From IMG/VR virus record IMGVR_UViG_3300033463_000200: a stretch of 51,552 nucleotides of DNA, one strand, 5' to 3'. The notes beneath the pieces were generated by a model. It did not search any database. It saw only the letters and a program-made list of their open reading frames with translations, and was not told where the DNA came from. A program made the position numbers and the translations under genes. Below, in pieces: positions 1-39,317 of the stretch (positions are counted from its first letter, which is position 1; each line of letters begins with the position of its first letter). Origin of the DNA: a virus.

Positions 1-3000
1 TATTTGTACCAATAGCAGTATCCATATCATATGGTTCTGCTACTGCTTTTCGTCCTAAACCTGATATACTAGAAGGACTTCCGTGAAAACCAATAAATAA
101 GTTTTTTGCTCTGCTATCAACCATCAGAAAGAGTTCTGTGAATATATAATAGAAAATAAAACTATCGATTTCCGCGTAATTACCAAATTCTGCTTTAAAT
201 TTGGCTAATCTATAATCTGATGTATCTTTATCGTAAGTTACATCAACTCTATAAGTTCTTTCTTCATAATTAACTGCCCCTGTTGTAGGATCTATAACTT
301 CAACGTATTCTGTTCTTGTTCCAGGATATGTAACAGGAGTAGTAAGATTGTCGTTTGTAGCATCTTCTCTATATGTTGAATAAATAAAACTCTATAAAAT
401 TTGAAGTTTGCTATAATCAATCCATTCATCAGAAGGAAATCTTGCTTCGTAATCAAAACGCCATCTTTCTTTTGTTTCTCCTGTATCTGGATCAGTATAA
501 AGAGATTCATCAAAATAATCAGATAAGAATAACATAAGATTAGATGTATTATTTTGGAATTCCCAAGATTCATCATTACCTTCATATCCGTAAGGACCAG
601 GCGCACGTTTAGGAAGATTAAAATTATATTTTCCTAAAAATGATGTTAATCCTGTAGATGTATTATTCCAGAAAACAACAATAGGAAGTCCATCAATACC
701 CCAGCGGACTTTGTTATTTTGCTGCATCTCTGGAGTTTTATAAGGACATGAATCGTTATAAAGTCTGACAAGCTCTACGTTATTAGCTCCTTCGGAAGAA
801 GCTACATCAGCTTTTAATACGAATCTATTAAAAGGAATAACATTATTTTTTAAAGCATAATTACTAGCATGTTCTCCACTAGAAGTCATATCAAACCCAT
901 TTTTAAACTGTAAGTCATAATTTTTACGAACGTAGACTGCTGATGAAGTACCTTGAACATTAATTTGACATCCTGTAAATGTGAATGATTTTGATGGATT
1001 AACTGGATCAACATATGTTCCAGAGATAGTTTTTTTATCTCCTTTGTATTGCGGAAGCTATTCTGCATTTAAAATAAAATATGGCAAGTTTGTAGGTAAT
1101 TTTGAAATTACAATATTCCCATATTGATCAAATATATTATTTCTTGTATAACGGTCACGTTTAATAGTTCCTATTTGAGTATCCGCGATCCAATTATTTA
1201 AAATCTGATGATCAGTAAGATCGTTATCATATATTCTAATACAATAAATATCTATAGTACAATCATTTGAACCTATACTAATATTAACTGGATTAATTTG
1301 AGAGAAATCATCATTATCAGCATATTGTACAACGCCAGATGGAATACCATTTATAAATACATAAAGCAATCTATTTTCTGCTCTCTTTTCAGCAACAAAA
1401 GCAATTCTGACATGCTCATCTTCTTTGTACTGAGTTGATATTTGAGATTGCTAGGATTTAAGATATGCACTCTGTGATGTTAATTCAAAGCCGCGGTTAC
1501 CGCTCATGCACGACATAATGACTGCACTATAATCAATAACATTCCTAGTTGCAAATTCTATCTAAATTGTTTTTCCTGTTGTTCTAAAGTCTCTTTCAAA
1601 GGGTTTATATGGAATAGTAACTCTTGCATCTCCAGAGCAACGTAAAACTGAATTTTCGTCTTCATCTTTTACCCATCCATCTGAAGTAAAATTAAAACCG
1701 GTAAGAGTACATTCTATTGCATCTGCTCCATCTCCATAAATCCATTCTGTTGGAGGTGGAATTATATCACTATTATTTCTTCCTTGAGAAGAAAGATAAA
1801 GAACTAAATCTTGAGTTACTGCTTCGATATTTGCAGAAGATCCCTAGACTGTAAAATTAATTACTTTAGATACATTCCCACAAGCTATAACAAATGAAAC
1901 TGAACCGCTTTCTTCTGCAATAAAAGTATAAGTTTGTTCTGTTCTATCAACAGTTTGAACTGATACAATAGTCCCTCCTATGCTAATAGTAATATTAGCA
2001 TAGAAACTATTTGGATTATATACATAAAAAGGAATTGGAACAGAATCATATTGATTTACTGAAGTTTTATTAAATGAACTAGAGATAAGAACTCTATTAA
2101 CTCCAGGAACAATAGACATAAATTCATAATATAATTCATTTGATGTTACTGTACTACCATTTATAGTTGCAGTCAAGTAACATTTGAAAGTATGTGTATC
2201 ATGAGATTGCGCAGGAATAATAAAAGATTGTTGTTGATTTGATATATCTATTGTCTATGTTGCAATTTCAACTTCATCTAATATAAAGTGTACAATTTTT
2301 GTTGTTGCTCCAACTGGAATATATGTAAAAACGATATCTCCAGTAAAAGGAGTTGAAACATCAAAAGTAGAACGAATAGATAATTCAACTGATATTATTG
2401 TAAAGGCTATAATTCTTGAATTTCCATATATATCGGTTATTTGTATTTTAACAGTATTATTTCCACTTGTTAAATAAGGACCTACATTAACTTGTATTCC
2501 ACCTTGTTGGATATTTTGGGTGAGTTTTAAGGCTCCATTGGAAGTTACTGTCAAAGTTCCATCACCAGTTGGTTGGCTATCTTCTATCGAAGACCAAGTA
2601 AAACTTAAAATACAGTCATCTCCAGTTGAAATAGTTTTGGAGTTGAAGCCAGAGGTGTTTGTAACTGTAAGTTTTGCTTCATTACCTCCTCCTCCTCCGC
2701 CACCTCCTCCGCCACCACCACCAATACCGGTGATTTCAAAGAGGATGTTTTCGCCATGAGTAAAATAAGCCACTCCGTCTTCTACATATCCAGAATCTAC
2801 ATAATTATAGCTCTGGACATCTAATATATCAACATGATTAGATAAATCAGAATATTTATCTGGAATAGAATCTAAAACTTGATTACCTTTATCTTCTATA
2901 TCTTGTAAATATTCTTCAACAGACTAATCAGCTAAAATATTATGACTTGTATAATTACCTTGCTCATCTTTAAATTTGAGAGCACCAGGTTTTAAAACTA

Positions 3001-3007
3001 TAGGCAT
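1..3007 (-). CDS. Large tail fibre/structural protein, 3' end lies beyond the window start. ATG at 3007 follows an RBS (GGAGAAAAAGG). A single reading frame runs from 3007 to position 2 if the in-frame TAG codons at 2924, 2255, 1844, 1058 and 392 are read as sense. A poly-Gly linker (14 Gly) lies near 2680-2730.
   Basis: The ORF-track fragments 392..889, 1058..1369, 1844..2176 and 2255..2773 all share the frame of the 3007 ATG. The triplet-by-triplet scans that were done (2-391, 890-1057 and through to the ATG at 3007) found CTA (=TAG) as the only stop triplet; 1370-1843 was not scanned for additional stops. The poly-Gly tract is in frame. TAG-containing late-gene style. Confidence 0.6.
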
Positions 3008-3089
3008 CCTTTTTCTCCTTTCTTTAAAAATAATATATTCATATTTGATATTATTTTTTAGGAAATGATTTTATTTAATTTTGTCCTTA

Positions 3090-3575: not shown

Positions 3576-3714
3576 TCTATACCTCCTTATTCTAAGTCTA
3601 TTCTATCAAATTTTTTAAAACTTGTCAAGGTCATTTCTGTTTTGATTTACTGTAATTTTTTTAATATAAAATAGAGTAACTCATTTAATCTTGAAGAAAG
3701 GAGAAAATTTTTTA

Positions 3715-7866: not shown

Positions 7867-7969
7867 TAAAAAGTACAGTTATAAACCTATGGGAACATAG
7901 TGTTCGCTGTATTACCCAGCTTGGACTATCCACTTGGTAGTATAAGCAGCTTTATAACTGTACTTTTTA
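7867..7969. repeat. Perfect 19-bp inverted repeat (TAAAAAGTACAGTTATAAA / TTTATAACTGTACTTTTTA) flanking a 65-bp spacer, immediately upstream of the giant tail-fibre gene.
   Basis: Read directly: arms at 7867-7885 and 7951-7969. The spacer contains a small hairpin (CTATGGGAACATAG). Confidence 0.7.
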
Positions 7970-8010
7970 TTTTTATAAAGAAAAATGAGAAAGGAGGAAT
8001 CCTTTTAACA

Positions 8011-11000
8011 ATGAGTGATTTACTTAAAAAAGTAAAAGTTCAGAATAATGATGGTTCATACTCTAATCCAATAATGGTTTCAACAGATGGAGATTATATT
8101 TTTTGTTATAATGGTAAAACTCTTAATGAAACTTTAAGAGATATTTCTTCATCTTTATTAAATACAATAGATGGTTCTTTAACTTTTTATTATTTAGCTA
8201 CTTACTTGGAAAGAGGAGTAACTATAAATACTCCAGGTTGGACTACAACTATGCAACAAATGACTAATTAGAAACGATATTTATGGATGTATTGTTCTTA
8301 TCAAAAGACAAATGGAATCACTGAAAGAATTAGCCCTGTTATAATCGGGGTGCGCGGAGCCGATGGATAGAAAGGTGATACTGGAGATCCTGGTACATCA
8401 GGTCTGGTTATAAATGGTTCAACAGTGAGTTATGGAGTTTCTAGTAGTGATAGTATAGAACCTTCTAATTGGGGTAGTTCAATGCCTCCTCTATCTAAAG
8501 GAGATTGGCTATGGATTAAAACTACATACACTTATTCTAGTGGAAACCCTCAAGTTGTTTATAACAAAAGTTATGTTGGAACAGATGGATAGAATGGAAC
8601 TAGTGTATATGTACAAAGCAGTAGTAAAGTGGATGGAGTTACTACTGTAACTCTTACTGATGGAACTGTAATGACTATTGCAGATGGCTAGGAAGGAGAT
8701 CAAGGTATTCCCGGACAATCTGAATATGTTCATATAGCTTGGGCTACTGCGGCAGATGGTAGTACAGGATTTTCTACCTCGATTAGTGAAGGTAAGACAT
8801 ATATAGGTGTTTATAATGACCAGAATTCAAATGATTCTTTAGATCCTGGTGATTATAATTGGAGTAGGATAAAAGGTGCGGACGGCACTAATGGGCATGA
8901 TGGGACTGGAATCAATTCTACTGTAATTACATATGGAAAGTCTAATAGTAGTTCTATTGAACCTCAAGATTGGTTTAGTACGGTTCCTTTATTAAATCCA
9001 GGTTAGTGGTTATGGACAAAAACTGTATATACTTATACTAATGGTAATGATTACACTACATATAGTAAAAGTTATGTTGGAACTAATGGAGATGATGGAG
9101 CTGGAATAGTTTCCACTCAACCTCAGTATTATTTATCTATTTATCCAAATGATTTAGTTGGAGGAAATTGGGTAACAACTTTAAATTATGTACCTGGAAA
9201 ATATATATGGACTAGATAGTATTATACTTATGACGATGGTAGTGATTCAACATCCGTGCCTATATATGATGCGGCCCTCACTCAATCCTGCATTGACTCA
9301 CATTCCGCATTAGCAATAGCAGAGTCTACCAATCAATACTTCTGGCATTTTACAGAAGAGTTCTATCTTACTGAAGATACTACAGTAGATTCTAGTAAAG
9401 ATTATTATGAATTAATTGGAAGTATTTATACACTTGTAGTTCCTATAGGAAACTAGAATCCTTCTGAAGAAGGTTGGTATGAAGTTTTTTCTGATACTGG
9501 AGCTCATATTACAGAGATCCCGCAGGAGGATTTCATGGCAGATCCCGCAAATGCTGGTGGAAATCTTCTTGCTAGAAGTAATGGTATTGCTATTAGAGAT
9601 GGATTAAATGAATTAGCTACTTTTAGTGCTAATGGAATTGGTCTTTTTGATGGACAAGGAAATGCTTCTTCTAATGAATTAGCTGTTTTTGGTGTTAATG
9701 GTGCTAGAATTGGTAAAGAAGATTCTGCTAATTTTAATATAACTCCAGCTACTACTTTTGCTAAGGATGTAAATCGTGATAAAGTATTTGAAATATATTC
9801 TGGTGGAGATGAAGAAACTGCTGAATATTCAGAAAGATCCATCATTTATAGACCTTCTAACCCACAAACAACTAGTATTAATTTACAGAATCCTCGTTGT
9901 GTAGATGGAGAAAATATTAATATAAATATTAAAGTATATTTCTTTGCAAATGTTAATGCTAATAATACGTGTTCTATAATGTATACAGAACCTGATGTTG
10001 GAGAAACTCTTACAGTAACTGATTCTCTTACAATATATCATCCTATCAGTTCTGCATTAGATCAAGTAGATTTTACAATAACAGGAACTTTTAAACAACT
10101 TACGGTTGGAGATTATACTACTACGATAAATATTGAATGTAGTAATTTTAATGATGTATATAAAATTGAATATGAAATTAATTATACATCATACCGTTCA
10201 AAATCACCTTCTTATACTTTAGGCGTTAGAAATGTAGATGATCCTAAAGGCGATTATAGTATAGTAGAAGGCTATAATAATATAGCCAGTGGAAAATATT
10301 CTCATGCTGAAGGGAATAGAAATACAGCTAGTGGTAATAGTGCTCATGTTGAAGGTAATGTAAATACAGCTAGCGGTAGTTTTTCCCACGCTGAAGGAGA
10401 TTATACAAAAGCTTTAGGAGCAAGTTCTCACGCTGAAGGAGATGAGAGCCAAGCCACTGGACCTATTTCTCATGCAGAAGGCAATAGAACAATAGCATCT
10501 GGAGATGTTTCTCATGCAGAAGGAAATAATACTGAAGCTAGTGGTAAATATTCTCATGCAGGAGGAAATAATACTATAGCAGCTTCAACTGCTCAAACAG
10601 TAATTGGAAAATATAATGTTGAAGATGTAAATGATACATATGCTTTTATTATAGGGAATGGTACTGGAACTAGTTCAAGAACAAATGCATTTACAGTAGA
10701 TTGGAATGGGGTAGCAACAGCATCATCTCATGCTACACCATCTGATATTCGTTTAAAATAGAATATTTAGAATACTGATGTAAATGCTTTAGAAGTTATT
10801 AATAAAATAAAGATGCGGCAGTTCGATTGGAAAAGGACTGGGGAGCATCAAAAAATTGGATTTATCGCAGATGAACTCGAATAGATTGATTCTCGTATGG
10901 TAATTTAGAATGGATAGAATAGCTATAAATCAGTTGAATCATATTATCTTGTAGGTTATTTAGTTAAAGCTGTACAAGAATTATCTGCTGAAGTCGATAA

Positions 11001-11034
11001 ATTAAAGCAAGAAATTGAAACTTTAAAAAATTAA
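8011..11034 (+). CDS. Giant tail fibre protein (about 1007 aa). It has a collagen-like Gly-X-Y segment, Hep/Hag-like SHAEGxxTxASG repeats and a C-terminal Peptidase S74 intramolecular chaperone domain. There are about 18 in-frame TAG.
   Basis: RBS GAAAGGAGG precedes ATG at 8011. The frame is continuous with ORFs 7900..8271 and 9535..10761. GADG(TAG)KGDTGDPGTSG keeps the Gly-X-Y register. Repeats of the form YSHAEGNRNTASG occur several times. The C-terminus PSDIRLK...FDWKRTGEHQKIGFIADELE...VGYLVKAVQELSAEVDKLKQE matches the S74 chaperone domain. TAA stop at 11032. Confidence 0.7.
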
Positions 11035-13613: not shown

Positions 13614-13642
13614 TTTAATCTCCTTATCTTTGTCAAGATAGT

Positions 13643-14017
13643 TTAATATATGCAATATGTTTCAACAAAATCTTCAGGATTGTTACATAATTCTCTTTCA
13701 AGTTCTACAAGATCTTTAGACGTATAGTCTTTTTGAAATTCTTCTTTTAATTCATAGATAGCACCATCTATATCTTCGTTATAGACATCGTATCTTAATT
13801 CCTCAATCTCTTCTTCTGACATGTCGTCGGTTTTATAATCTTCTACAGTTTGTTCCAAATCTTCAATTATAGAACTATAAGATGTGATAACATCCATAGA
13901 ATTTTCTAAAAGCCATTCATTAGCTTCTTCTATTGAGGAACATTCTGCAAGAGACCAGTTTTCCATTCCATGAAGCCCGCCATAAATTTGCTCGTAAGCG
14001 TGAATTACATATAGCAT
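13643..14017 (-). CDS. Highly acidic hypothetical protein (124 aa). Possible DNA-mimic-type anti-defence factor.
   Basis: RBS GGAGAAGTAAT precedes ATG at 14017. Very Asp/Glu-rich. The ORF-track N-terminal extension overlaps tRNA-Arg and was rejected. Confidence 0.4.
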   Translation of the reverse strand: MLYVIHAYEQIYGGLHGMENWSLAECSSIEEANEWLLENSMDVITSYSSIIEDLEQTVEDYKTDDMSEEEIEELRYDVYNEDIDGAIYELKEEFQKDYTSKDLVELERELCNNPEDFVETYCIY

Positions 14018-14041: not shown

Positions 14042-14113
14042 TACTCCGAGAGGGAATCGAACCCACATTTCATGGTTCGTAGCCATGTAGTCTCTCCGTT
14101 AGCTTATCGGAGT
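14042..14113 (-). tRNA. tRNA-Arg (anticodon ACG).
   Basis: Acceptor ACTCCGA/TCGGAGT pairs perfectly. The anticodon loop is CTACGAA. T-arm GGGTTCGATTCCC. Confidence 0.7.
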
Positions 14114-14291
14114 TTAATGAGGAATTAGTTGGCGCTAATCCTCAATCCTTATATACGCCAATATATAAGGTTTTTGGTTTATGTCGGGAAAACCGTGGCG
14201 CGACACAGTCCGTCATCAGCACCAAAACCCGTTAGATCTAACCTTCTCTCCAACTTTTCGTATGCCACCTACTTCGTTCAAAAGAGAAGAA

Positions 14292-14365
14292 TACCCCAAG
14301 TTGGATTTAAACCAACGACCCTACGCTTAGAAGGCGTATGCTCTAGTCCACTGAGCTACTGGGGC
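14292..14365 (-). tRNA. tRNA-Arg (anticodon TCT).
   Basis: 5' end GCCCCAGTAGCTCAGTGG. Anticodon stem TACGC/GCGTA with loop CTTCTAA. T-arm GTTGGTTTAAATCCAAC. Confidence 0.65.
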
Positions 14366-14513
14366 TAGTCGGCTTTATCGTTAAGCCGTAACGCTGATAG
14401 TGTGGATATTTTCCCAAAGTCTTGCAAGACACTCTTTAAATGGGGTGCGCACTTCTCGACAAGAGTAACATCCTATCAGATTAAGTAAGCCACGATTTCC
14501 GACCGTAGCTTAA

Positions 14514-14584
14514 CAGGATCTAGAGGAATTGAACCCCTGTCTACTGATTTGGAGTCAGTCATGTTACCACTACACCAAGAACCC
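14514..14584 (-). tRNA. tRNA-Trp (anticodon CCA).
   Basis: Anticodon stem ACTGA/TCAGT with loop CTCCAAA. T-arm GGGGTTCAATTCC. The acceptor stem has one mismatch. Confidence 0.55.
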
Positions 14585-14587
14585 ATA

Positions 14588-14664
14588 CAGCCCCTGTTGG
14601 ATTCGAACCAACGACATATCCAGGAGTCAAAGTCCTGTGCCTTGAGCCACTTGGCGAAGGGGCT
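14588..14664 (-). tRNA. tRNA-Gln (anticodon TTG).
   Basis: Acceptor AGCCCCT/AGGGGCT pairs perfectly. Anticodon stem CAGGA/TCCTG with loop CTTTGAC. T-arm GTTGGTTCGAATCCAAC. Discriminator G. Confidence 0.65.
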
Positions 14665-14754
14665 AAGAAGTGGCTTGTCCTGGTTACGCTCCAGGCTCCC
14701 TGGTTCTTCAGACCAGTGCTTTCACTAGATTAGCTTACAAGCCATAGCAAGAGA

Positions 14755-14838
14755 CATTTAAGGATTTGAACCTTTCAAAAAATTTTTGGAGAATTTTTCT
14801 TTAACCATTTTAATAAATATTGCTGTATGTCTCTTTAA
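14755..14838 (-). ncRNA. AT-rich tRNA-like element. The T-arm is AAGGTTCAAATCCTT and a candidate anticodon loop is CTCCAAA. Degenerate or specialised.
   Basis: The acceptor pairing is only partial (AGACATA/AATGTCT). It contains the 18-bp repeat ATTGCTGTATGTCTC at 14818-14835. Confidence 0.25.
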
Positions 14839-14911
14839 AGATCTGTTTCCGACTTGCACGGAAGTCTATCGGGTTGCAGCCGATATGCCCTTCTTATTAG
14901 ACGAACAGATC
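14839..14911 (-). tRNA. tRNA-Cys-like (anticodon GCA) with a noncanonical T-loop (TGCAAGT).
   Basis: Acceptor GATCTGT/ACAGATC pairs perfectly. Anticodon stem ATCGG/CCGAT with loop CTGCAAC. T-arm TTCCG-TGCAAGT-CGGAA. The D-loop lacks a GG. Confidence 0.45.
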
Positions 14912-14948
14912 AATAGAAAGATACGTTTTTCATATCTTTCATAAATAT

Positions 14949-14977
14949 ATTATATCAAAAATTTTAAAAAAAATCAA
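14949..14977 (-). promoter_or_regulatory. Minus-strand sigma70-like promoter (TTGATT-17-TGATATAAT) driving the tRNA cluster 14911-14042 and downstream genes.
   Basis: Member of the repeated motif family TTATTATATCAAAAATTTT (plus-strand view). Confidence 0.6.
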
Positions 14978-14990
14978 TGCGGACGTTACA

Positions 14991-15401
14991 TTACCAGTTA
15001 GTATACACATCTAACGTGTTCCAAGCACATCCACTGTCATAAACTTTTCCTTTTTTACCAAACGGGGTTTTTACAACTCTACCACGTTTTAGTTTAGAAC
15101 TTGCTAAACAAATATATCCTTTCTTATCACAGACATATCCATTCTTATCTACGTGTCTGCCTGGAATTTTTAATCCTCTACCTGGAAGAACGCGTTGTGA
15201 ATACCAAGTCCACCGCCATCCATTCCAGCGAATAACTCCCATTCTTTTAAAGTATTTAGCAGAATATTTTGCTTTTTTCTTTTTCTTTTTTGCTTCGGCA
15301 GTAACAACAAAAGGACTCTTATGATTTAAGTCTGGCATAATAAGAGTCGCTCCAAAAATCAAACTAAGGATTAAAAACAAACTTAATATCTTTTTTCTCA
15401 T
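14991..15401 (-). CDS. Secreted 3D-domain protein (MltA/SpsE-like cell-wall-binding domain). Has a signal peptide.
   Basis: RBS AAAGGAAAA precedes ATG. The N-terminus is hydrophobic. The C-terminus ...VKTPFGKKGKVYDSGCAWNTLDVYT resembles the 3D domain. Confidence 0.5.
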   Translation of the reverse strand: MRKKILSLFLILSLIFGATLIMPDLNHKSPFVVTAEAKKKKKKAKYSAKYFKRMGVIRWNGWRWTWYSQRVLPGRGLKIPGRHVDKNGYVCDKKGYICLASSKLKRGRVVKTPFGKKGKVYDSGCAWNTLDVYTNW

Positions 15402-15479
15402 ATATCTATTTTCCTTTCGTAATAAAAAATAGGGCTGTTTATCTAAATATAAACAACCCTAAATTCCTAAAGCAGACTT

Positions 15480-15827
15480 TTAATTTAGAAACTTACTAAG
15501 GACACTAAGGAAGTCAAAAACATCATTTTCTCCTACGTCGTCACAAGAGAAAGTAGTATGAAAATAACCATAATCTTTAGTAAAATCTGTTAGAAGTTTA
15601 CTAACTTTATTCTGTGCTTCCCTAGCTTCTCTAAAGGCTTCCTCGACCTCTTTCGCACGTCTGGTCCTTTCAGCCCTCTTAGCAGCTTCCGCCCTTTCTT
15701 TTTCCGCACGTGCTTGTTCTGCTTTTGCTTTTGTTATACGTTCTTTTTCTTTTGCTTCATTCTCTGCTTTGATCAGTTCCTGTTCTGAATCAAAAAATTT
15801 GTTTAGATCTGTACTGTAATACTTCAT
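15480..15827 (-). CDS. Coiled-coil protein rich in Ala/Glu/Lys/Arg (115 aa).
   Basis: RBS AAAGGAATT precedes ATG at 15827 (MKYYSTDL...). The upstream ORF-track extension was rejected. Confidence 0.4.
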   Translation of the reverse strand: MKYYSTDLNKFFDSEQELIKAENEAKEKERITKAKAEQARAEKERAEAAKRAERTRRAKEVEEAFREAREAQNKVSKLLTDFTKDYGYFHTTFSCDDVGENDVFDFLSVLSKFLN

Positions 15828-15994
15828 TTTGTTAATTCCTTTCTTAACATATTTGGCGGCTAGCCACTTCCTAGGCATAGCCTGGAACCGCCACTTTGTT
15901 GATGGCACATTTAATCCAGGGATTTCACCGTACTTATTTAATGACTGGCTCGGGAGCTACCCTTACAAGAATCTAAGTTCCTACGGCTACCAGC

Positions 15995-16065
15995 GGTGAC
16001 TACTGGGAATCGAACCCAGATCTTTAGAACCACAATCTAAGGTATTACCATTATACGATAGTCAC
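15995..16065 (-). tRNA. tRNA-His (anticodon GTG).
   Basis: Acceptor GTGACTA/TAGTCAC with discriminator C. Anticodon stem TTAGA/TCTAA with loop TTGTGGT. Confidence 0.7.
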
Positions 16066-16067
16066 AG

Positions 16068-16140
16068 ACGGAGTGATGGGACTCGAACCCACAACCACGT
16101 GATCCCAAATCACGCATGCTACCAGTTGCAACACACCCCG
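16068..16140 (-). tRNA. tRNA-Pro (anticodon TGG).
   Basis: Anticodon stem CGTGA/TCACG with loop TTTGGGA. T-arm TGGGTTCGAGTCCCA. Confidence 0.7.
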
Positions 16141-16689
16141 ATATACAAGACACTTAATGTTTACTATTGCCTTTACCATTTGGCTACTTAAATTTTAAGA
16201 TGAGATTCGAACTCATAATATATAGTCTTCTATAAGAATTGCTGTATGTGTCTTATAATTTTAAATGTAATCTCTTAATCCAAAGAACTATTCATCAGTT
16301 CCTTTGAAATCATTGAAGTTTTCTTTAGTATATCTCTAATCTTTTAGAATATCAACAAGAGAAGATAAGTATCCCTATATTAAAAAAGGTAAGTATAAAT
16401 CTTCTGCTATTGTAAAATAACCTTCGTCATCAAAATCATACTATGTTAAATTTAGAATATTGTCTTCCTATTCAAGACCCATTACATAGAAATTGCCCTA
16501 TTTAAAGGGATAATCTAATATCATTGCACTTTTTCTCATATACATCCCTCTTTCTTTTGTTTTTATACAAGATTGGTAAGAATTTACTTTGTATTTTATT
16601 GTAGTTCAAAAGAAATTCTTTGAAAGAAAGATACTACTTTGCAGCCTTTTTAATCTTCAGATTTTTTATTGCAGTTAACCAACCTTTAA

Positions 16690-16775
16690 CGGAAGTGAGA
16701 GGATTCGAACCTCTGGACCCTCTCGGGTCGGAAGTTTAGCAAACTTCTGCACTAAGCCATACTATGCGACACTTC
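16690..16775 (-). tRNA. tRNA-Ser (anticodon GCT), class II.
   Basis: Acceptor GGAAGTG/CACTTCC. Anticodon loop TTGCTAA. Long variable arm CGACCCGAGAGGGTC. Discriminator G. Confidence 0.75.
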
Positions 16776-16781
16776 CATATA

Positions 16782-16855
16782 ATAGCCCGGCTGGGATTCG
16801 AACCCAGGATCACCAGATTTAGAGTCTGGGGTGTTAAGCCTCTCCACTAACGGGC
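16782..16855 (-). tRNA. Suppressor tRNA (anticodon CTA, reads UAG).
   Basis: Anticodon stem CCAGA/TCTGG with loop CTCTAAA. T-arm CTGGGTTCGAATCCCAG. Acceptor GGCCCGT/CCGGGCT with a G1-U72 pair. Discriminator A. Confidence 0.7.
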
Positions 16856-17436
16856 CAGATTAATATAACAAGACACTAAGTAAATAAACAGTTTACCCAA
16901 AACAGTTTTTTTCTTGTTGATTGCTGTATGTGTCTTAAATGGAGCTGGCCGGTACTGCCCCGGCGTCCAACGATACTACTTATTATAAGTTTTTCCACGT
17001 TGTATCTGTGATAAATAGTTACATTAAAACTATATAAAACTTAAATCAAGCAGCTAACGCTGTAGGATAAAAATAATCGTTTGCGTTTATTTTAATATAT
17101 TGATTACGTCAATTACTCGAACGAACTTATAATTTTTATACCCCTGTCGAAACTATTTACAGCCCCAAACATAATCATATTAAACTTACCTTTATCTAAA
17201 TTACTCAACACCGAAACACTATTAGTTGGTTTGTGTTGCCATCTTCATCATGTGATTACTTAATCCTCATCCACGCCTCATTAAATATAAAAGAAGTCTA
17301 ATATGATTTGTTCGTATTGCCCAGTCTTGTTTTCATGCGCACCGTCACGCAAATATTGCACACAATATCCAAAACCAAACAACCGATTACATTAGTCAAC
17401 GGTGTTATTATATTAAGTAGATCTGGTGTGCCAGAG

Positions 17437-17520
17437 TGCACTCGGTGGGACTTGAACCCACATGAGTATTATCTCCTGGGATTTTAAGTCCCATGCGTAT
17501 GCCAATTCCGCCACGAGTGC
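17437..17520 (-). tRNA. tRNA-Leu (anticodon TAA), class II.
   Basis: Acceptor GCACTCG/CGAGTGC. Anticodon stem TGGGA/TCCCA with loop CTTAAAA. Long variable arm. Discriminator A. Confidence 0.75.
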
Positions 17521-17569
17521 AAACAAAATGGCAGTTTATAAAAACTGCCAAACAACGAGTTACAAATCA

Positions 17570-17938
17570 TTACTGGGCCTGTTCCTTAAGGAACTCGTCA
17601 TATTCATCCTTGAATACCCAGCGGAATCCATAAGCTACACGAGTCTTGGTACGCTTATTCAAAGCATCACCAATACCAGATTTACCTTCCTTACCAATAG
17701 CAGCAAGGGCTTCTTTCTGAGTTGCATACTCTGCAAGAATCTTCCCTGTCTCAATGTCAATCTGGAGAACGCCAGACTTATTCGGGGACTTGCGTTTCTT
17801 AGCAGCTGCCGCATCCTGTTCATCAAGAACTTCAAGAGCATCACTAAGAACTTCAATTACCTGTTCCTGAATACCGGGATCAATCTCACTTGAATTCTGG
17901 AAGTAAAACAACAGTCCATTGATCTTATTTCGATCCAT
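17570..17938 (-). CDS. Small DNA-binding protein with a homing-endonuclease-type NUMOD1/IENR1-like helix-turn-helix. No nuclease domain.
   Basis: RBS GGAGATAGGAAT precedes ATG. IETGKILAEYATQKEALAAIGKEGKSGIGDALNKRTKTRVAYGFRWVF matches the C-terminal DNA-binding motif of phage homing endonucleases. Confidence 0.5.
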   Translation of the reverse strand: MDRNKINGLLFYFQNSSEIDPGIQEQVIEVLSDALEVLDEQDAAAAKKRKSPNKSGVLQIDIETGKILAEYATQKEALAAIGKEGKSGIGDALNKRTKTRVAYGFRWVFKDEYDEFLKEQAQ

Positions 17939-18620
17939 ATTCCTATCTCCTTTTATCTCTTGTTTTGTTAATAAAATAACTTAGTTATATTTATGACAGA
18001 CCTTCGCCTTACTGGTAATAACCTTCGCCTATGTTCAACCAATGAGGAGATATACCTGAGCATTAAAGAGCGACTTTAATGCTATATACCCCATCCGCAT
18101 AGCAGATAAATATGCAATATATCCTATCTGCATAGCAGACAAATCTCATAAAGGATTTGTTACCTTTAACTTTCAGCTACCTTTCAGTTAATATTACGAA
18201 TTTTTTCTTACTGTAAAAAATCCCAATATCAAAGTCAACGCACATTTAGCCTACTCGTACCCTGACCCAATCTTATACCTGACTTTCATCAGTTCAAGTG
18301 CGAAACCTCTTAGTGGATTTCCAAGGTTTGTTTAATTTTCCAGGTCAAACCTAACTTGGATTGGTGCTCTTGTTAAGAACCCCATATTGCGAAGCCGATT
18401 GGAACAGTGTTTTTAGTCGCGATTACACCAGCGCTGTTAACCGAAACCTTTAAGTTCTTAAAGGCGACCTATGTACATCACTGCATAGATTCTTTTTACA
18501 CAAAGGGTATCCTCTTTGTTTCATTATTTCCAATAATGGTTAACACCTCAGCACTATGGAATTAGTGTTTATCACTGAGTTGAATCATAAATATAACTAA
18601 ATTATTTTATTTAGTTAAAG

Positions 18621-18673
18621 TCCCAGGTAAGGATTCGAACCTTACTACTCTAAGAGCAAGCCACTCTGGGAAC
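18621..18673 (-). ncRNA. Truncated tRNA-like element (about 53 nt). The T-arm GTAAGGTTCGAATCCTTAC and acceptor-like ends are present, but there is no complete D/anticodon region.
   Basis: Read directly. Probable tRNA remnant. Confidence 0.3.
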
Positions 18674-18709
18674 CTCTATATTACAACAAAAGAGGGTAAT
18701 GGGTGAAAG

Positions 18710-18782
18710 TCGCGGAAGTGGGATTTGAACCCACGATCTTTTGCTTATGAGGCAAACGAGATGACCCCTTCTCCATTCCGCA
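18710..18782 (-). tRNA. tRNA-Met or Ile2 (anticodon CAT), elongator type.
   Basis: D-stem GAGA/TCTC. Anticodon stem TTTGC/GCAAA with loop CTCATAA. T-arm GTGGGTTCAAATCCCAC. Confidence 0.7.
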
Positions 18783-19068
18783 AAATATATAAAAAATAGC
18801 TTTGTCCATTTCTAGGCTCTCTGACTTTTGTTTATAGCCTGAATTTTTTGGGTCATGACTCCCATCAGATAGTCTGTTATGATCTCTCCCTGCCGACCGC
18901 CACAGTCTGGTGGACTCTCCTAAGGTTAATGTACACTCCTCTTAGGTTACCGTTGCTATCTTTTTGCATCAAGACAGTTTATAAAAAGTGATTCTTTAAA
19001 TGACTAATTTAAAATACCTATTTTTTTATTTTAATGGCTGTAACTGTCTTTCTTTATCTTATACATAT

Positions 19069-19097
19069 ATTATATCAAAAATTTTCGTTTTTGTCAA
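19069..19097 (-). promoter_or_regulatory. Minus-strand consensus promoter (TTGACA-17-TGATATAAT) for the tRNA sub-cluster.
   Basis: The reverse complement of 19061-19105 reads TTGACAAAAACGAAAATTTTTGATATAAT. Confidence 0.65.
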
Positions 19098-19430
19098 AAA
19101 TTTTTGAAATACCCTACGTGGAAATTGCATCCACACTTCATCTGCGCTTTTCTTCTAAAATGAGTTTACTTCGTGCTATGAAGTTCTATCATTAGGGTAC
19201 GCGGGAACAGGTTAATGCAACGTTGGACTAGCCTATTAGCGTATATAACCGGAGTCCGCACTCCTTTTTTCTCCTTTTCTATATGAAGAATAAGTTAGTT
19301 GCAACAGCACTTATTCGTAAAAAGAAGTTAGTGGTATATACCAAAGCGACGAGAAGGTGATGAGCCTTCACTCTAAAGATATTAGAGCCATGGTTATATA
19401 TCTTTAGATTCTCCTCAGGGACGTCGCATA

Positions 19431-19503
19431 TGATCCTGGTGGGACTTGAACCCAACATTACGAGATTGAAAGCCTCGTGACCTAGCCTTTAGTCGACAGG
19501 ACC
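19431..19503 (-). tRNA. tRNA-Glu (anticodon TTC).
   Basis: Anticodon stem CGAGG/TCTCG with loop CTTTCAA. T-arm TTGGGTTCAAGTCCCA. Confidence 0.6.
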
Positions 19504-19626
19504 GAACGGGAATTTACTTTGCCTCTTTATATACCGTTTGTCACAATGCCACATACCTCGCAAGCCAGTGGTAGTTTAATTCCCCAAATCCATGCTAACG
19601 GTGATTTTAATGTCTTATCTGACTAG

Positions 19627-19700
19627 CGACTCTGACGGGATTTGAACCCGTGATCTTCGCCGTGACAGGGCGATGTCCTAAACCACTAGACGACAGAGTC
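19627..19700 (-). tRNA. tRNA-Asp (anticodon GTC).
   Basis: Acceptor GACTCTG/CAGAGTC pairs perfectly. Anticodon loop CTGTCAC. Discriminator G. Confidence 0.75.
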
Positions 19701-19806
19701 AAATTAATAGAGAAACTACTTTCCGCGGCGTGTCCCTTTTCTGGGCCGACTCCCAGCGAGGATTTTTCCTCCCCACCGTTAGGCTGTTACTCATTTCTCT
19801 ATTGTA

Positions 19807-19880
19807 TAGGAGTAGGGGGACTCGAACCCTCAGACTTCTGATCCTAAGTCAGACGCATATGCCAATTCTGCTATACTCCC
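19807..19880 (-). tRNA. tRNA with anticodon TAG (Leu by anticodon) but a class I fold with a short variable arm.
   Basis: Anticodon stem TCTGA/TCAGA with loop CTTAGGA. Acceptor GGGAGTA/TACTCCT. Discriminator A. Confidence 0.55.
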
Positions 19881-19886
19881 AAATAA

Positions 19887-19960
19887 TACTTCTGGTAGGA
19901 TTCGAACCTACAACACCCCGGGTTTGAGCCGATTGCGTCTGCCAGTTGCGCCACAGAAGC
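19887..19960 (-). tRNA. tRNA with anticodon CAA (Leu by anticodon) but a class I fold with a short variable arm.
   Basis: Anticodon loop CTCAAAC. T-arm GTAGGTTCGAATCCTAC. Discriminator A. Confidence 0.5.
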
Positions 19961-19969
19961 ATTTAAGTG

Positions 19970-20041
19970 GATACGGTGGGATTCGAACCCAATCTTTCTC
20001 CTTGCAAGGGAGATGCTTTCCCAATTAAGCTACCGACCCAA
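19970..20041 (-). tRNA. tRNA-Ala (anticodon TGC) with G3-U70. The acceptor stem has two internal mismatches.
   Basis: 5' end GGGTCGGTAGCTTAATTGG. Anticodon stem TCTCC/GGAGA with loop CTTGCAA. Discriminator A. Confidence 0.55.
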
Positions 20042-20388
20042 AATGGTAAGTTGAGTTTATAGTCCCAGGCACTTACCAAGCCACTGGACAAGTCTTTTTT
20101 AATTTGCGAACTTGAGTAAAAAAGACAAAACTCGACTCCTTTAATTTCTTCTCTTCTTATTCGGAAGGAATATGCCGCTGTGACATAACAGCGGATCCCC
20201 TGATAACCAATCTTTGCAACAAGGTGGGCCGGGTCCAGCCCTCAGGTTGTCCATACCATGATGACTAGGTTTCTCGTTCAAACCTAATAAAACGTATAGA
20301 TCCTCATTTCACGCCCGAATCTAGAGCCGGCTGTTCTAACCATCAACAGCTTAGGAACTTGCATTGGTTTGGGGCAAGTCATCCCAAA

Positions 20389-20451
20389 TGACCTTAGAGG
20401 GAATCGAACCCTCTCTTCCACCGGCGTGCTATCCCAATACACTATAAGGTC
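20389..20451 (-). ncRNA. Truncated tRNA-like element (about 62 nt). The acceptor pairs perfectly and the D-arm and T-arm are present, but there is no full-length anticodon arm.
   Basis: Acceptor GACCTTA/TAAGGTC. T-arm GAGGGTTCGATTCCCTC. Confidence 0.3.
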
Positions 20452-20670
20452 TATGTCTTAAACCGTCGTTTAAGACATAAAATATGTTTAAAGTCGTCAC
20501 TCTAAACATAAAGGCAGATCCGGATTTCAAGAACATATTACTCCAAGCACGGGGAATCGAACCTCTTAATATGTCTGACTACCTTAATTCTTTCTTTTGC
20601 TAGCTACCGCCAGCCTTACGAGGAGAAGAAAGATTGAACTTAGGTGGTTTATAGCTTACCACTAACTGCA

Positions 20671-20744
20671 CGGGAACGGGTGGACTCGGACCACCGACAT
20701 CTTGCTTAACAGGCAAGCGTTCTGACCGACTGAACTACGCTCCC
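20671..20744 (-). tRNA. tRNA-Asn (anticodon GTT).
   Basis: Anticodon stem CTTGC/GCAAG with loop CTGTTAA. T-arm GGTGG-TCCGAGT-CCACC. Confidence 0.7.
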
Positions 20745-20751
20745 AATTTAA

Positions 20752-20907
20752 TTAACGATCTTTTCTCTTTTCCAGAGCTTCAAAAATGATGCTTCCGAAT
20801 CTTTCTTCGATGAAACGTACCTGAGAATATCCTTTTACAAAAGTAATATGCTTCTGTCTGTTGTCATCCTGATAAGTTACCATGTAAGTTACTAATTCTT
20901 TCTTCAT
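20752..20907 (-). CDS. Small hypothetical protein (51 aa).
   Basis: RBS GAGGAG precedes ATG at 20907. Not in the ORF track (below 60 aa). Confidence 0.3.
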   Translation of the reverse strand: MKKELVTYMVTYQDDNRQKHITFVKGYSQVRFIEERFGSIIFEALEKRKDR

Positions 20908-20992
20908 AATTAAAACTCCTCTACATGATAAAAAGCATTTTTCATTTGATATAATAATTATATCAAAAATTTTTTATTTTTTCAAATGATCG

Positions 20993-21193
20993 TTATAAAT
21001 CCCCTTCATAAAACTTTTTTCCAAAAAACTTATCAATAGATACTTCTGCAAATCCTAGTAATTTACAAAAATCTCTACAAATGGTATGTATTTCATTTAG
21101 ATCTGGATCAGAAGGAATTTCCCAGTTACAAGAGATCTTTCTTTCATAAGAATTGCTTCCATCGGGAATAAAGGTTATTATAATATTATTCAT
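20993..21193 (-). CDS. Hypothetical protein (66 aa).
   Basis: ORF track. RBS GAGGATATAAAA precedes ATG. Confidence 0.4.
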   Translation of the reverse strand: MNNIIITFIPDGSNSYERKISCNWEIPSDPDLNEIHTICRDFCKLLGFAEVSIDKFFGKKFYEGDL

Positions 21194-21222
21194 TTTTATA
21201 TCCTCTTTAAAATTATTATAAA

Positions 21223-21294
21223 AGCCCTCGACAGGATTTGAACCTGCAACCCAGTCATTACAAGTGACTTGCGCTTCCGTTGCGCTACGAGGGC
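21223..21294 (-). tRNA. tRNA-Thr (anticodon TGT).
   Basis: Acceptor GCCCTCG/CGAGGGC. Anticodon stem AGTCA/TGACT with loop CTTGTAA. Confidence 0.75.
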
Positions 21295-21403
21295 ACGCGC
21301 AGGTATGTTTTATGCGGACTTTCCTGCTTTAACCGCACGCCGGATTTGCATTTGGTCAGGCGCGTGACCTACCTACATCTGAATCGCAACTTCAGGGGAT
21401 AAG

Positions 21404-21477
21404 TACGCCCAATGGGATTTGAACCCATGACACCTAGATTAAAAGTCTAGTGCTACTACCAACTGAGCTACGGGCGC
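21404..21477 (-). tRNA. tRNA-Lys (anticodon TTT).
   Basis: Anticodon stem CTAGA/TCTAG with loop CTTTTAA. T-arm ATGGGTTCAAATCCCAT. Confidence 0.75.
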
Positions 21478-21480
21478 ATA

Positions 21481-21551
21481 AGTCTCATACGGGATTCGAA
21501 CCCGTGACTCATGCTTGGAAGGCACGTATGTTTCCACTACACCAATGAGAC
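21481..21551 (-). tRNA. tRNA-Gly (anticodon TCC).
   Basis: Acceptor GTCTCAT/ATGAGAC. Anticodon loop CTTCCAA. T-arm ACGGGTTCGAATCCCGT. Confidence 0.7.
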
Positions 21552-21784
21552 AGGTCGAGGCTCTGCGCATAAGCCTCTGTCCTTTTTCAAACTATTAGGT
21601 AACCCATTAGGAAAAACATTTAAAATCATAGGGAGTGCGAGGCATCTTTGGTTTTTTAGGAAAAAACCACTGAGGATCACACCAAGCAATCTGGAAAACC
21701 GTCCCTTTACTTCGGGACTGAAGCCGCAGTCTTTGTCAAATAAGAACTTTCGGAAAAACTCATTTTTATTTTTATTGTATATAT

Positions 21785-21813
21785 ATTATATCAAAATTTT
21801 TTGTAAAAATCAA
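21785..21813 (-). promoter_or_regulatory. Minus-strand promoter (TTGATT-17-TGATATAAT) for the Gly/Lys/Thr tRNAs and downstream small genes.
   Basis: Motif family member. Confidence 0.55.
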
Positions 21814-21820
21814 ACGTTTT

Positions 21821-22105
21821 TTATTTTGCTCGATAGCATTTATACCAATATCTATGAAATTCTTTAATAGTAGGAAATCTTTTTCTCCATGCACTATCTT
21901 CTTCATATGCTTTTTTAGCTTCAAACCATGTCCATCTACTAATATAATCGTGTATATTCCAAGAGCAAAATAATTTTTTATATTCTTTTCTGTTGTATTT
22001 ACCTTCAGTATTTCTTACTTTTGAATTAGCTATTCTTTTAGACCTTTTTGTAGAACCAGCTTTTCCATCACTACATATAGGATGTTTTTTATAACTTCTA
22101 CTCAT
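21821..22105 (-). CDS. Basic (Lys/Arg-rich) hypothetical protein (94 aa).
   Basis: ORF track. Confidence 0.4.
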   Translation of the reverse strand: MSRSYKKHPICSDGKAGSTKRSKRIANSKVRNTEGKYNRKEYKKLFCSWNIHDYISRWTWFEAKKAYEEDSAWRKRFPTIKEFHRYWYKCYRAK

Positions 22106-22911
22106 TTTTTTATCCTCTTGAATGCGTTTACAACTCCATTAATTATAGGACTAAAATATTTTATTTTTTCTTTTTTATTAATAGGAATATGAATATTATC
22201 AGTTATTCCATATAATTCAAAAAATACTTCAGAAGCTTTGTCAATAGGAATATAAAAGCGACCTTTTTTACCCCATAAAACTCCCCATGAATTTTGAACG
22301 ATTAAATATTTTTTAGTCCAGCCAACGATAATAACAGCATGACCGCTATAATTAGCATTTTTATTATATTTGTATACATTTTTAGTTGATAAAGATGCAT
22401 CGTCATACCATTTCATACCAGCTAAAACGGGACCATGATTATAGATAGCGTATTTTAATTCATTAATATTTTGAATTTTATAGTATGTACTAATCCTATT
22501 TGGATATGCTTTTGCTTTATAAAAATTAAAATTTGATGAAACTATTTTCATAGCAGTTTCATAATCGTTATTACCAGGAAGTATATTTTTTAATAAATCT
22601 CCATATTTTTGAACAATTTTTAAACCATCTCTTAGATACATTCCATCTCCAATGTATTCACATTCTTGTCTACATCCATAAATAAAATCCGTACTAAAAC
22701 GATTATATTTAGATGAATCTTTAAAACTATGATATTCAACAATTTCTGCAAGAGCATGAGCTACACAGGTTGGTTTTGAACCTTGATTTTTAATTGATAA
22801 TATACCCAAATCAAAAGTTGCTGGAACTTTTGAAACATCAACAGTTTTTGCAATAGTATAATCTCGCACATCAAAAGGTGAAGGTATTGCACCAAACCCA
22901 TTATTCTACAT
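22102..22911 (-). CDS. Papain-like cysteine peptidase (Peptidase C1 family). The ORF begins ATG-TAG.
   Basis: The catalytic motifs are present: QGSKPTC (Cys), NYSGHAVIIVGW (His) and VQNSWGVLWG (Asn). A strong RBS GAGGAGGG sits 5 nt before ATG at 22911, and the second codon is TAG, in frame with the ORF-track segment. Confidence 0.7.
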
Positions 22912-22936
22912 ATTATCCCTCCTCTTACTTTGATAG

Positions 22937-23024
22937 TAGAAGATCCGGGACTCGAACCCGGATTTACCTTGCTAGGGCCTAGGGCTTATAAGGCCCGGGC
23001 TCTTACCGATTGAGCTAATCTTCC
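22937..23024 (-). tRNA. tRNA with anticodon TAT (reads AUA) carrying an unusually long (about 19-nt) variable region.
   Basis: D-stem GCTC/GAGC. Anticodon loop CTTATAA. T-arm CCGGGTTCGAGTCCCGG. Confidence 0.5.
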
Positions 23025-23028
23025 ACAG

Positions 23029-23111
23029 CGGAGGGAGTAGGATTCGAACCCACGGACCTTTCGGCCTCTGGTTTTCAAGACCAGTTCCATAAACCGCTCG
23101 GACATCCCTCC
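23029..23111 (-). tRNA. tRNA-Ser (anticodon TGA), class II.
   Basis: Acceptor GGAGGGA/TCCCTCC. Anticodon stem CTGGT/ACCAG with loop CTTGAAA. Long variable arm. Discriminator G. Confidence 0.75.
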
Positions 23112-39210: not shown

Positions 39211-39244
39211 AGAGAAAGGAGGAAAACAATTTTTAGATATTGAG

Positions 39245-39317
39245 TGTGCCATCTGGGACTTGAACCCAGAACCCTACGATTAAGAGTCGTATGCTCTACC
39301 AATTGAGCCAATGGCAC
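39245..39317 (-). tRNA. tRNA-Lys (anticodon CTT), located inside the early-gene region.
   Basis: Acceptor GTGCCAT/ATGGCAC. Anticodon stem TACGA/TCGTA with loop CTCTTAA. T-arm CTGGGTTCAAGTCCCAG. Confidence 0.75.

Follow-up and report, generated by a model that had tools for sequence, protein, structure and literature searches.

A tRNA-Glu-like amber suppressor in a phage tRNA array, and late genes in which UAG probably stands for glutamate

A 51,552-nucleotide stretch of phage DNA (IMG/VR record IMGVR_UViG_3300033463_000200; the window, in what follows, is this whole stretch) contains, inside an array of tRNA genes, a tRNA gene whose anticodon, CUA, reads the amber codon TAG. We believe that this gene is, very probably, a working amber suppressor of the tRNA-Glu type, through which UAG would be read as glutamate in the late genes of the phage. 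Namely, when the TAG-containing genes are aligned with their homologues, TAG behaves statistically as a codon for Glu and not for Gln, and the acceptor end, the discriminator base and the D arm of the suppressor match, at the level of sequence, those of tRNA-Glu rather than those of tRNA-Gln. On a wider scale, it appears likely that UAG has come to stand for glutamate in a clade of SPbeta-like phages from rumen and gut metagenomes, by means of a suppressor derived from tRNA-Glu(CUC), with related phages using Gln-type suppressors or reading TGA as Trp. The gene and its anticodon are as follows.

16783..16856, minus strand: amber suppressor tRNA (ARAGORN; Rfam, 56 bits; covariation across its family)
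16820..16822, minus strand: anticodon CUA, reading TAG (ARAGORN and Rfam; the plus strand has TAG at these positions)

In-frame TAG codons and the residue opposite them

Once TAG is taken as a sense codon, long open reading frames (ORFs) appear in the window. Eight late ORFs hold 74 in-frame TAGs, as against 4 in eight TAG-poor ORFs, and the view of a preliminary description of this DNA, that the suppressor supplies the decoding capacity for in-frame TAGs, agrees with the many such codons found in long, conserved late genes. The window genes with in-frame TAGs include the following.

2..3070, minus strand: large CotH-like structural gene, 7 TAGs, cut by the window start
3691-4578 and 4575-6014, plus strand: two virion-protein-like genes, 6 and 2 TAGs
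7900..11034, plus strand: tail-fibre-like gene with a Peptidase_S74 chaperone domain, 12 TAGs
33591..35687, plus strand: three ORFs with no assigned function, 6, 10 and 5 TAGs
49252..50427, plus strand: sigma-factor-like gene (phrog_5767), 11 TAGs
50441..51550, plus strand: small-terminase-like gene (PF27269 YonG_N, phrog_3314), 20 TAGs, cut by the window end

The genes near the tRNA array and on its strand, including those for a DUF2828/DUF7788 protein, a vault-like protein and several others, are free of TAG. Homologues of the TAG genes are collinear across the TAG sites, and essential late genes depend on UAG read-through. As an aside, the CotH-like protein has 14 consecutive glycines at ORF residues about 95-108.

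The same pattern extends beyond the window. In particular, a public contig of 86 kb (ENA ERZ27257207, k141_7340073; referred to here as L340) shows 100% identity to the window over an overlap of 1,110 nt and reaches 10 kb past the window end. Its next genes, with Pfam matches of the SPbeta YonD/YonB/YomW-like kind, have 14, 4, 8, 5 and 17 TAGs, the 14 being those of the terminase-like gene just beyond the window. The terminase-like protein has relatives in cultured phages of Enterococcus, Bacillus, Geobacillus, Clostridium and Alicyclobacillus, and for this reason the host is probably a member of the Firmicutes.

Homologues of the TAG genes, most of which have no TAG in these genes, were fetched as DNA from IMG/VR, and the residue opposite each TAG was scored by a Codetta-style log-likelihood. 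The 66 TAG positions scored lie in seven genes, 37 in three genes of the window and 29 in four further genes of L340, and the mean frequency of Glu at these positions in the homologues is 0.47-0.57. For the 37 columns of the window genes the log-likelihood is +42.9 for E, -31.4 for Q and -52.3 for K, and the control codons were assigned correctly in 15/15 cases. The 29 independent columns of L340 give +35.0 for E and -28.7 for D, with Q outside the top three. What is more, the mean aligned Glu at the 37 TAG columns, 0.47, lies close to the values for GAA (0.51) and GAG (0.55), those for CAA/CAG being 0.08-0.13. The same holds at the level of codons: opposite TAG, 50% of the homologue cells are GAA or GAG and 8% are CAA or CAG, the corresponding values being 54% and 5% opposite GAA and 9.5% and 60% opposite CAA. 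In other words, TAG appears from these alignments to be used as a Glu codon; code 15, for its part, would have Gln at the TAG sites of standard-code homologues, and this is not the residue found there.

The individual sites tell the same story. Five TAG positions of the small-terminase-like gene are Glu in 27-28 of 29 homologues and several others are mostly Glu; residues 503, 540 and 671 of the CotH-like protein, all TAG, are Glu in 69/71, 67/71 and 54/68 homologues, and residues 25 and 273 of the sigma-like protein in 20/25 and 25/28. In a gene of L340 coding for 571 amino acids, Glu dominates 12 of the 14 TAG columns (28/30, 30/31 and 29/30 homologues, for example). Amino acid composition can be looked at in the same light: with TAG counted as Glu, the late genes contain 7.2% Glu, compared with 8.2% in the early genes, and with TAG counted as Gln they contain 4.75% Gln, nearly double the 2.5% of the early genes. 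If TAG is indeed Glu, about a quarter of the Glu codons of the late genes are TAG. The recoded relatives, too, appear to use TAG as Glu, including L131, which lies on the same contig as the L066 suppressor.

Would the same procedure return Gln where Gln is the accepted answer? Phass-1 (OQ749652), a member of the same broad group with a terminase-like protein of 31% identity, has three CUA tRNAs and a published reassignment of TAG to Gln (PMC10607447). It was taken as the control in place of the IMG/VR loci with Gln-type suppressors, as conserved TAG sites are too scarce in the flanks retrieved for those loci. When Phass-1 is compared with Enterococcus phage EF1 in the same pipeline, its TAG columns have Q at 0.24 and E at 0.08, next to Q at 0.20-0.21 for its own CAA/CAG codons and E at 0.31-0.40 for its GAA/GAG codons. 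Consequently, the method is able to return Gln, and the Glu obtained for the window reflects a real difference. One public record illustrates the practical side of this difference. Namely, the protein P0001 is the terminase-like protein of the same phage and has Q at all 20 TAG positions within the window, from which it follows that it was translated under code 15; many of these Q sites are invariant Glu in the homologues.

The suppressor tRNA and its type

ARAGORN finds a tRNA gene with anticodon CTA on the minus strand at 16782-16857, and the Rfam tRNA model (RF00005) matches 16783-16856 of the same strand with a score of 56.0 bits, the gathering score being 29, and with E = 1.8e-9 over the whole window. 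On the minus strand and in the Rfam register, positions 1-73 read GGCCCGU UA GUGG AGAGGCUUA ACAC C CCAGA CUCUAAA UCUGG UGAUC CUGGG UUCGAAU CCCAG CCGGGCU A. This is a cloverleaf of 7/4/5/5 bp, above the Rfam gathering threshold for tRNAs and without an encoded CCA, in which the anticodon sits in the standard 7-nt loop register, C32-U33-C-U-A-A37-A38, as ARAGORN and Rfam concur. A tRNA-Ser(GCT) gene (16689-16777, minus strand) lies 4 nt downstream. The preliminary description had the anatomy exactly right on the minus strand (stem CCAGA/TCTGG, loop CTCTAAA, T arm CTGGG-TTCGAAT-CCCAG), and both the CUA anticodon and the tRNA-Ser(GCT) neighbour that it reported are confirmed. Its coordinates, 16782-16855, are within 1-2 nt in plus-strand numbering, but it left the strand unstated, and the gene is on the minus strand. 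It had also spoken of a phage-encoded suppressor within a tRNA array, in keeping with the 23 tRNAs that ARAGORN calls in the whole window and two further Rfam matches, all but a tRNA-Lys(CUU) lying in the array.

The suppressor tRNA is genuine. Its single-sequence fold energy is unremarkable (z = -0.6), as is usual for tRNAs, and it is the covariance-model score together with the conserved family, not the fold energy, that places it beyond chance. ARAGORN names the gene tRNA-Pyl, which is merely the label that this program gives to any CTA anticodon. Hallmarks of tRNA-Pyl are a 3-nt variable loop, a short D loop without GG, a 6-bp anticodon stem and accompanying pylS/pylBCD genes. In the suppressor the variable loop measures 5 nt, the D loop is 9 nt long and contains GG, the anticodon stem comprises 5 bp and the T loop, UUCGAAU, is canonical, which rules this name out, and no Pyl genes were seen in Pfam scans of the window ORFs.

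ARAGORN and Rfam place the acceptor stem in registers 1 nt apart. The Rfam register has G1.U72, G2-C71, a U7xC66 mismatch and A73, as opposed to U1-A72, a bulged C and U73 in that of ARAGORN. A search with the conserved D-arm motif found relatives of the suppressor in nine other IMG/VR phage contigs, and their acceptor stems covary in the Rfam register (GGCCCGU/CCGGGCU, CGCCCGA/UCGGGUG, GCGGCAA/UUGCCGU, GGCCCGG/UCGGGUC). Across seven family members, standard pairs fill 94.6% of the cells, compared with 31-46% when the 3' partner is slid, both sides change in 12 of the 21 base pairs, and none of 500 shuffles attained any of the observed covariation values. It is on account of this covariation that the Rfam register holds and the shifted one, with its U1-A72 pair and bulge, is ruled out; the G1-U72 pair and A73 that the preliminary description had read are thereby upheld. 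The orthologues at the same place in the array, beside tmRNA and tRNA-Ser(GCU), are conserved, and every family member has a G.U pair at 1:72 or 2:71, with the rest of the stem covarying. One sub-family (L064, L066, L014) has C73 instead of A73, the window copy having A73. As for other searches, an exact search of IMG/VR with the anticodon arm, CCAGACTCTAAATCTGG, returned only tRNA-Leu(UAG) genes on the opposite strand, since this arm is nearly palindromic; an exact search with the T arm and acceptor stretch found nothing, and a blastn comparison of the tRNA region with GenBank phages gave no match.

To which isotype does such a tRNA belong? Acceptor ends were parsed in all 737 tRNAs that the window and the loci retrieved by then contained, and in these phages' tRNAs the discriminator base is isotype-specific. 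Phage tRNA-Gln has G73 in 34/34 genes and a weak 1:72 pair (U-A, A-U or UxU) in 31/34. Of 15 tRNA-Glu genes, 13 have A73 and 13 have G.U at 1:72 or 2:71; tRNA-Lys has A73 in 25/27, with G.U at 1:72 in 2/27 and at 2:71 in none. The remaining discriminators parsed are G73 for Trp (10/10), U73 for Cys (32/32) and G73 for Asp (7/7). Two genes of the phage itself serve as comparators.

19431..19503, minus strand: the phage's own tRNA-Glu(UUC), with G1-C72, G2.U71 and A73
14588..14664, minus strand: the phage's own tRNA-Gln(UUG), with A1-U72 and G73, unlike the suppressor

With G1.U72 and A73, the suppressor lacks the acceptor end of the Gln type and shows, like most phage tRNA-Glu genes, A73 and G.U in one of the top two acceptor pairs. 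How it differs from the window's own tRNA-Gln(TTG) had been stated correctly from the start, and the accompanying remark, that the charging identity is not obvious from the sequence, was right as well, the acceptor end not being Gln-like.

A second set of elements lies in the D arm. The suppressor has U11-A24 and a 13:22 position that is not a Watson-Crick pair, as do all seven family members (7/7 for each, 13:22 never being a standard pair), and these are elements of the augmented D helix that is read by the glutamyl-tRNA synthetase (GluRS) of E. coli. A scan with UAGUGGA, 5-8 nt and UAACAC, followed by U33 and GUUC and with the anticodon left free, retrieves 31 tRNAs from IMG/VR, namely 20 tRNA-Glu (11 CUC, 9 UUC), 9 CUA suppressors and 2 tRNA-Gln. 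Applied to one genome per prokaryotic species, it retrieves 28 tRNA-Asp, mostly from Staphylococcus, 20 tRNA-Glu(CUC), mostly from uncultured Bacilli, Mollicutes-like bacteria and Erysipelotrichaceae, 13 archaeal tRNA-Val, 1 tRNA-Met and 1 tRNA-Gln. This distribution points to the acidic pair Asp/Glu and not to Glu alone, and the discriminator A73, in place of G, together with C34-U35 would then favour Glu over Asp. The similarity to tRNA-Glu(CUC) can also be followed in single genes. One from an Acholeplasmatales genome has acceptor positions 1-6, G2.U71, A73 and the D stem in common with the L017-type suppressor. The tRNA-Glu(CUC) of Phass-1 has the same D stem as the window suppressor and four of its five anticodon-stem pairs, and its anticodon loop, CUCUCAA, differs from CUCUAAA at position 36 only. 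As opposed to this, the CUA tRNA of Phass-1 that was examined has U1-A72, G73 and an encoded CCA, i.e. an acceptor end of the Gln type.

Charging, alternative explanations and known codes

In the reading that we favour, a phage or Bacilli tRNA-Glu(CUC) would have become the suppressor through a change of C36 to A. The suppressor would be made from the array, which lies in the standard-code part of the genome, where the host could translate the nearby TAG-free genes, and UAG would then be read as glutamate in the terminase, structural, tail-fibre and sigma-like late genes. The position of the array in the standard-code part fits the published model, in which expression of the suppressor opens the translation of late genes (Borges et al. 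preprint). Charging, as we infer it, would be carried out by the host GluRS, and among 29 window ORFs scanned with Pfam there was no aminoacyl-tRNA synthetase, no release factor and no amidotransferase. GluRS recognises U35 together with the augmented D helix, and in Firmicutes the non-discriminating form of the enzyme is tolerant of variation at position 36; A36 might be tolerated much like the G36 of tRNA-Gln is by that form. Glutaminyl-tRNA synthetase (GlnRS), on the other hand, uses U1-A72 and G73, and the amidotransferase GatCAB recognises tRNA-Gln by U1-A72. Both enzymes, GlnRS provided that the host has one, would ignore the suppressor, and Glu would stay Glu on it, because it is without U1-A72 and G73 for the former and without U1-A72 for the latter. 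By the same token, the Gln-type CUA tRNAs of related phages such as Phass-1 would give TAG as Gln, and this link between the type of the tRNA and the meaning of TAG holds for Phass-1, the one phage checked.

That said, several observations weigh against reading UAG as glutamate by way of a Glu-type tRNA. A G1.U72 pair is common among the phage's own tRNAs, including those for Arg, Leu, Lys, Ile and Trp, and was rejected as a signature of Glu when taken alone; it carries weight only with A73 and with its persistence across a covarying family. The D arm is not specific to Glu either, the motif occurring also in the bacterial (28) and archaeal (13) genes for tRNA-Asp and tRNA-Val, respectively. 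Global pairwise similarity singles out no isotype for the suppressor, the Lys, Gln and Trp tRNAs being as close as Glu, and isotype hidden Markov models (sequence only, anticodon masked), which classified 17 of 22 control tRNAs correctly, do not single out Glu: the top four, within about 5 bits, are Met 36.0, Cys 33.4, Glu 32.2 and Asp 30.9, with Gln absent from among them. The window copy, alone in its family, has the U7xC66 mismatch. Among the conserved TAG columns there are also a few with Gln (4), Lys (2) or Leu (1), and these may mean that decoding is partially ambiguous. The genome has been seen in part, and a further CUA tRNA, a synthetase or a release factor could be encoded in the rest. 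Finally, the amino acid at TAG is deduced from alignments, and the roles of GluRS and GatCAB are those of a model for a host that is itself a probable member of the Firmicutes.

How do other explanations fare with these data? The most conventional would be code 15, under which the CUA tRNA would be charged with Gln, by GlnRS or through the Glu-tRNA amidotransferase, and TAG would mean Gln. This is the sole TAG reassignment reported for phages, GlnRS of E. coli readily charges CUA tRNAs, four conserved TAG columns are Gln and a public database already renders these TAGs as Q. We consider it quite improbable, for Q lies about 74 log-likelihood units under E in one set of genes and is not among the best three residues in the other, the homologue codons opposite TAG have the profile of GAA/GAG and not that of CAA/CAG, the suppressor has A73 and G1.U72 where all 34 phage tRNA-Gln genes have G73, and the method does yield Q for Phass-1. 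A compromise, in which charging is divided between Glu and Gln (or Lys) and the TAG sites are statistical mixtures, would accommodate the minority of TAG columns with conserved Gln or Lys, and synthetic E. coli tRNA-Glu(CUA) suppressors, studied by Normanly, Kleina and colleagues in 1990, reportedly inserted Glu together with Gln. However, the Gln fraction at TAG, 0.08-0.10, does not exceed the 0.12 at GAG columns, a level that corresponds to the normal background of Glu/Gln exchange, and in the terminase-like gene TAG stands at many positions with invariant Glu, at which mixed residues would be costly; such a compromise strikes us as unlikely.

Another amino acid, with A73 tRNAs and a synthetase dependent on U35, is very improbable. 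For Lys, one could cite the A73 of phage tRNA-Lys and the two TAG columns with conserved Lys, and for Asp a D arm identical to that of Staphylococcus tRNA-Asp. However, the log-likelihoods are -52.3 for K and -28.7 or lower for D, compared with +35 to +43 for E, the G.U pair is rare at 1:72 and absent at 2:71 in phage tRNA-Lys, and phage tRNA-Asp has G73 throughout, the aspartyl enzyme, moreover, needing G34 and C36. Finally, the window copy might be decayed or unused, with TAG read by another suppressor, either elsewhere in the genome or of the host. The broken U7xC66 pair, found in this copy only, would fit such a state of affairs, as would the three CUA tRNAs of Phass-1 (PMC10607447) and the unseen part of the genome, about 24 kb on the 86-kb contig and probably more outside it. 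Against it stand the score of 56 bits, the otherwise intact pairs, the orthologues conserved beside tmRNA and tRNA-Ser(GCU), and the fact that this is the sole CUA tRNA in the 61.6 kb examined, all of which makes it extremely improbable.

How does this reading relate to what is known? CUA suppressors and TAG recoding have been described in crAss-like, Lak, Agate and Phass-1 phages (10.1101/2021.08.26.457843; PMC9523058; PMC10607447). In the papers searched, no reassignments are described for phages other than TAG as Gln and TGA as Trp (or as Gly, where the host uses code 25), a restriction that Borges et al. state explicitly and on which they build a GlnRS-based explanation (10.1101/2021.08.26.457843). 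In the full-text literature, apart from subscription-only papers, no description came to light of a phage with TAG as Glu. As in code 15 phages, the CUA tRNA of the window lies in a phage tRNA array, the in-frame TAGs cluster in late, structural and packaging genes, the early genes fit the standard code and no dedicated synthetase is nearby. In contrast to those phages, where TAG was found to be Gln by alignment or mass spectrometry, TAG here aligns with Glu. The suppressors differ accordingly in appearance, that of Phass-1 being of the Gln type (U1-A72, G73) and that of the window of apparent Glu type (A73, a G.U pair atop the acceptor stem, a Glu-like D arm). The closest likeness is to the tRNA-Glu(CUC) of uncultured Bacilli, Acholeplasmatales, Erysipelotrichaceae and Phass-1-like phages, namely the GUGG/ACAC D stem, U11-A24, the non-Watson-Crick 13:22, G.U at 2:71 or 1:72, A73 and the loop with C32, U33, C34 and U35. 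The difference is C36, which in the suppressor is A36, and hence UAG is read and not GAG.

To our knowledge, UAG stands for Glu only in some eukaryotic nuclear codes. In particular, UAG, along with UAA, is Glu in the nuclear codes of peritrich ciliates and Blastocrithidia (NCBI tables 30 and 31), by means of a suppressor derived from tRNA-Glu. These codes are eukaryotic and genome-wide and include UAA, whereas here one deals with a bacteriophage, with UAG only and with some genes only, in a host that presumably uses the standard code. That one change in the anticodon is enough to make an amber suppressor of a Glx tRNA is known from E. coli supE (tRNA-Gln CUA) and from synthetic tRNA-Glu(CUA). 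Those are laboratory or chromosomal alleles with partial suppression, whereas the present gene is natural and conserved, and essential phage genes rely on it. A phage that reads TAG as Glu would thus appear to have a variant of the phage genetic code not described so far. Related phages add a further observation. Namely, the small-terminase-like gene of sister lineages (L104, L109-L112, L115) has an in-frame TGA opposite Trp (K*MGEN vs KWMGEN), meaning that the same phage group includes readers of TGA as Trp.

If true, this reading would have several implications. The restriction of phages to TAG as Gln and TGA as Trp has been used to argue that GlnRS and TrpRS, the tryptophanyl enzyme, are hijacked host enzymes; a phage with TAG as Glu would break this rule and make GluRS a third entry point. 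The inserted amino acid would then be set by the tRNA scaffold that bears CUA and not by a "GlnRS weakness", and it may be that the 1:72 pair and the discriminator, as seen by GlnRS or GatCAB, decide which amino acid it is. As the Glu-type and Gln-type CUA tRNAs of related phages differ mainly at the acceptor end, the determinant of the amino acid is testable. What is more, such a genetic code would be absent from the current bacterial and viral tables, and database proteins of such phages, if translated under code 15, would have Q in place of the E made by the phage, as was seen for the one record checked; annotation pipelines that default to table 15 on meeting in-frame TAG would put Q at every such site. 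A natural tRNA that apparently inserts Glu at UAG would also be of interest to genetic-code engineering.

The tRNA array and its surroundings

The window has 35% G+C and is phage-like. The array stands on the same strand as the TAG-free genes that surround it.

14042..23111, minus strand: tRNA array holding the suppressor (22 ARAGORN tRNAs, 2 further Rfam tRNA-like genes, a tmRNA-like gene and a ROOL RNA)

Immediately upstream of the suppressor lies a short tmRNA-like gene (16937-17166, minus strand, about 230 nt), which Rfam matches with 56.9 bits against a gathering score of 47 (RF00023) and which ARAGORN misses. Its tag frame reads ANDYFYPTALAA and ends in TGA, and ARAGORN does detect tmRNAs at the corresponding place in the relatives L040, L059 and L065. 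A full-length ROOL RNA (275.6 bits) follows at 17978-18603 on the minus strand, also within the array. Two tRNA-like genes on the minus strand, at 20389-20451 and 14671-14743, are seen by Rfam only. One of the two is 63 nt long and has 3 nt in place of the anticodon arm, and the other resembles tRNA-Phe(GAA) with an aberrant T loop. The one tRNA outside the array, tRNA-Lys(CUU), stands isolated at 39244-39317. Other unusual tRNAs are found in related phages (L045, L059, L062, L065, L074, L078; L015-L025; L035 and L068), among them CUA tRNAs of 89-93 nt with a long extra arm, tRNAs with an 8-nt anticodon loop (ARAGORN "taaa") and ochre-type tRNA(UUA) genes.

Directly downstream of the array is the gene for the DUF2828/DUF7788 protein (12138-13661, minus strand). 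Relatives of this protein are encoded by 166 IMG/VR stretches, and of the 80 loci retrieved, most have a tRNA array ahead of the gene, its last tRNA commonly being tRNA-Cys(GCA). A TAG-free protein of 822 amino acids (28508-30979, minus strand) has the shoulder and repeat domains of the major vault protein (PF11978, PF17795), which is unusual in a phage. Between 35.7 and 49.2 kb, even with TAG as a sense codon, there are short ORFs only, mostly of fewer than 165 amino acids and mostly without a Pfam match.

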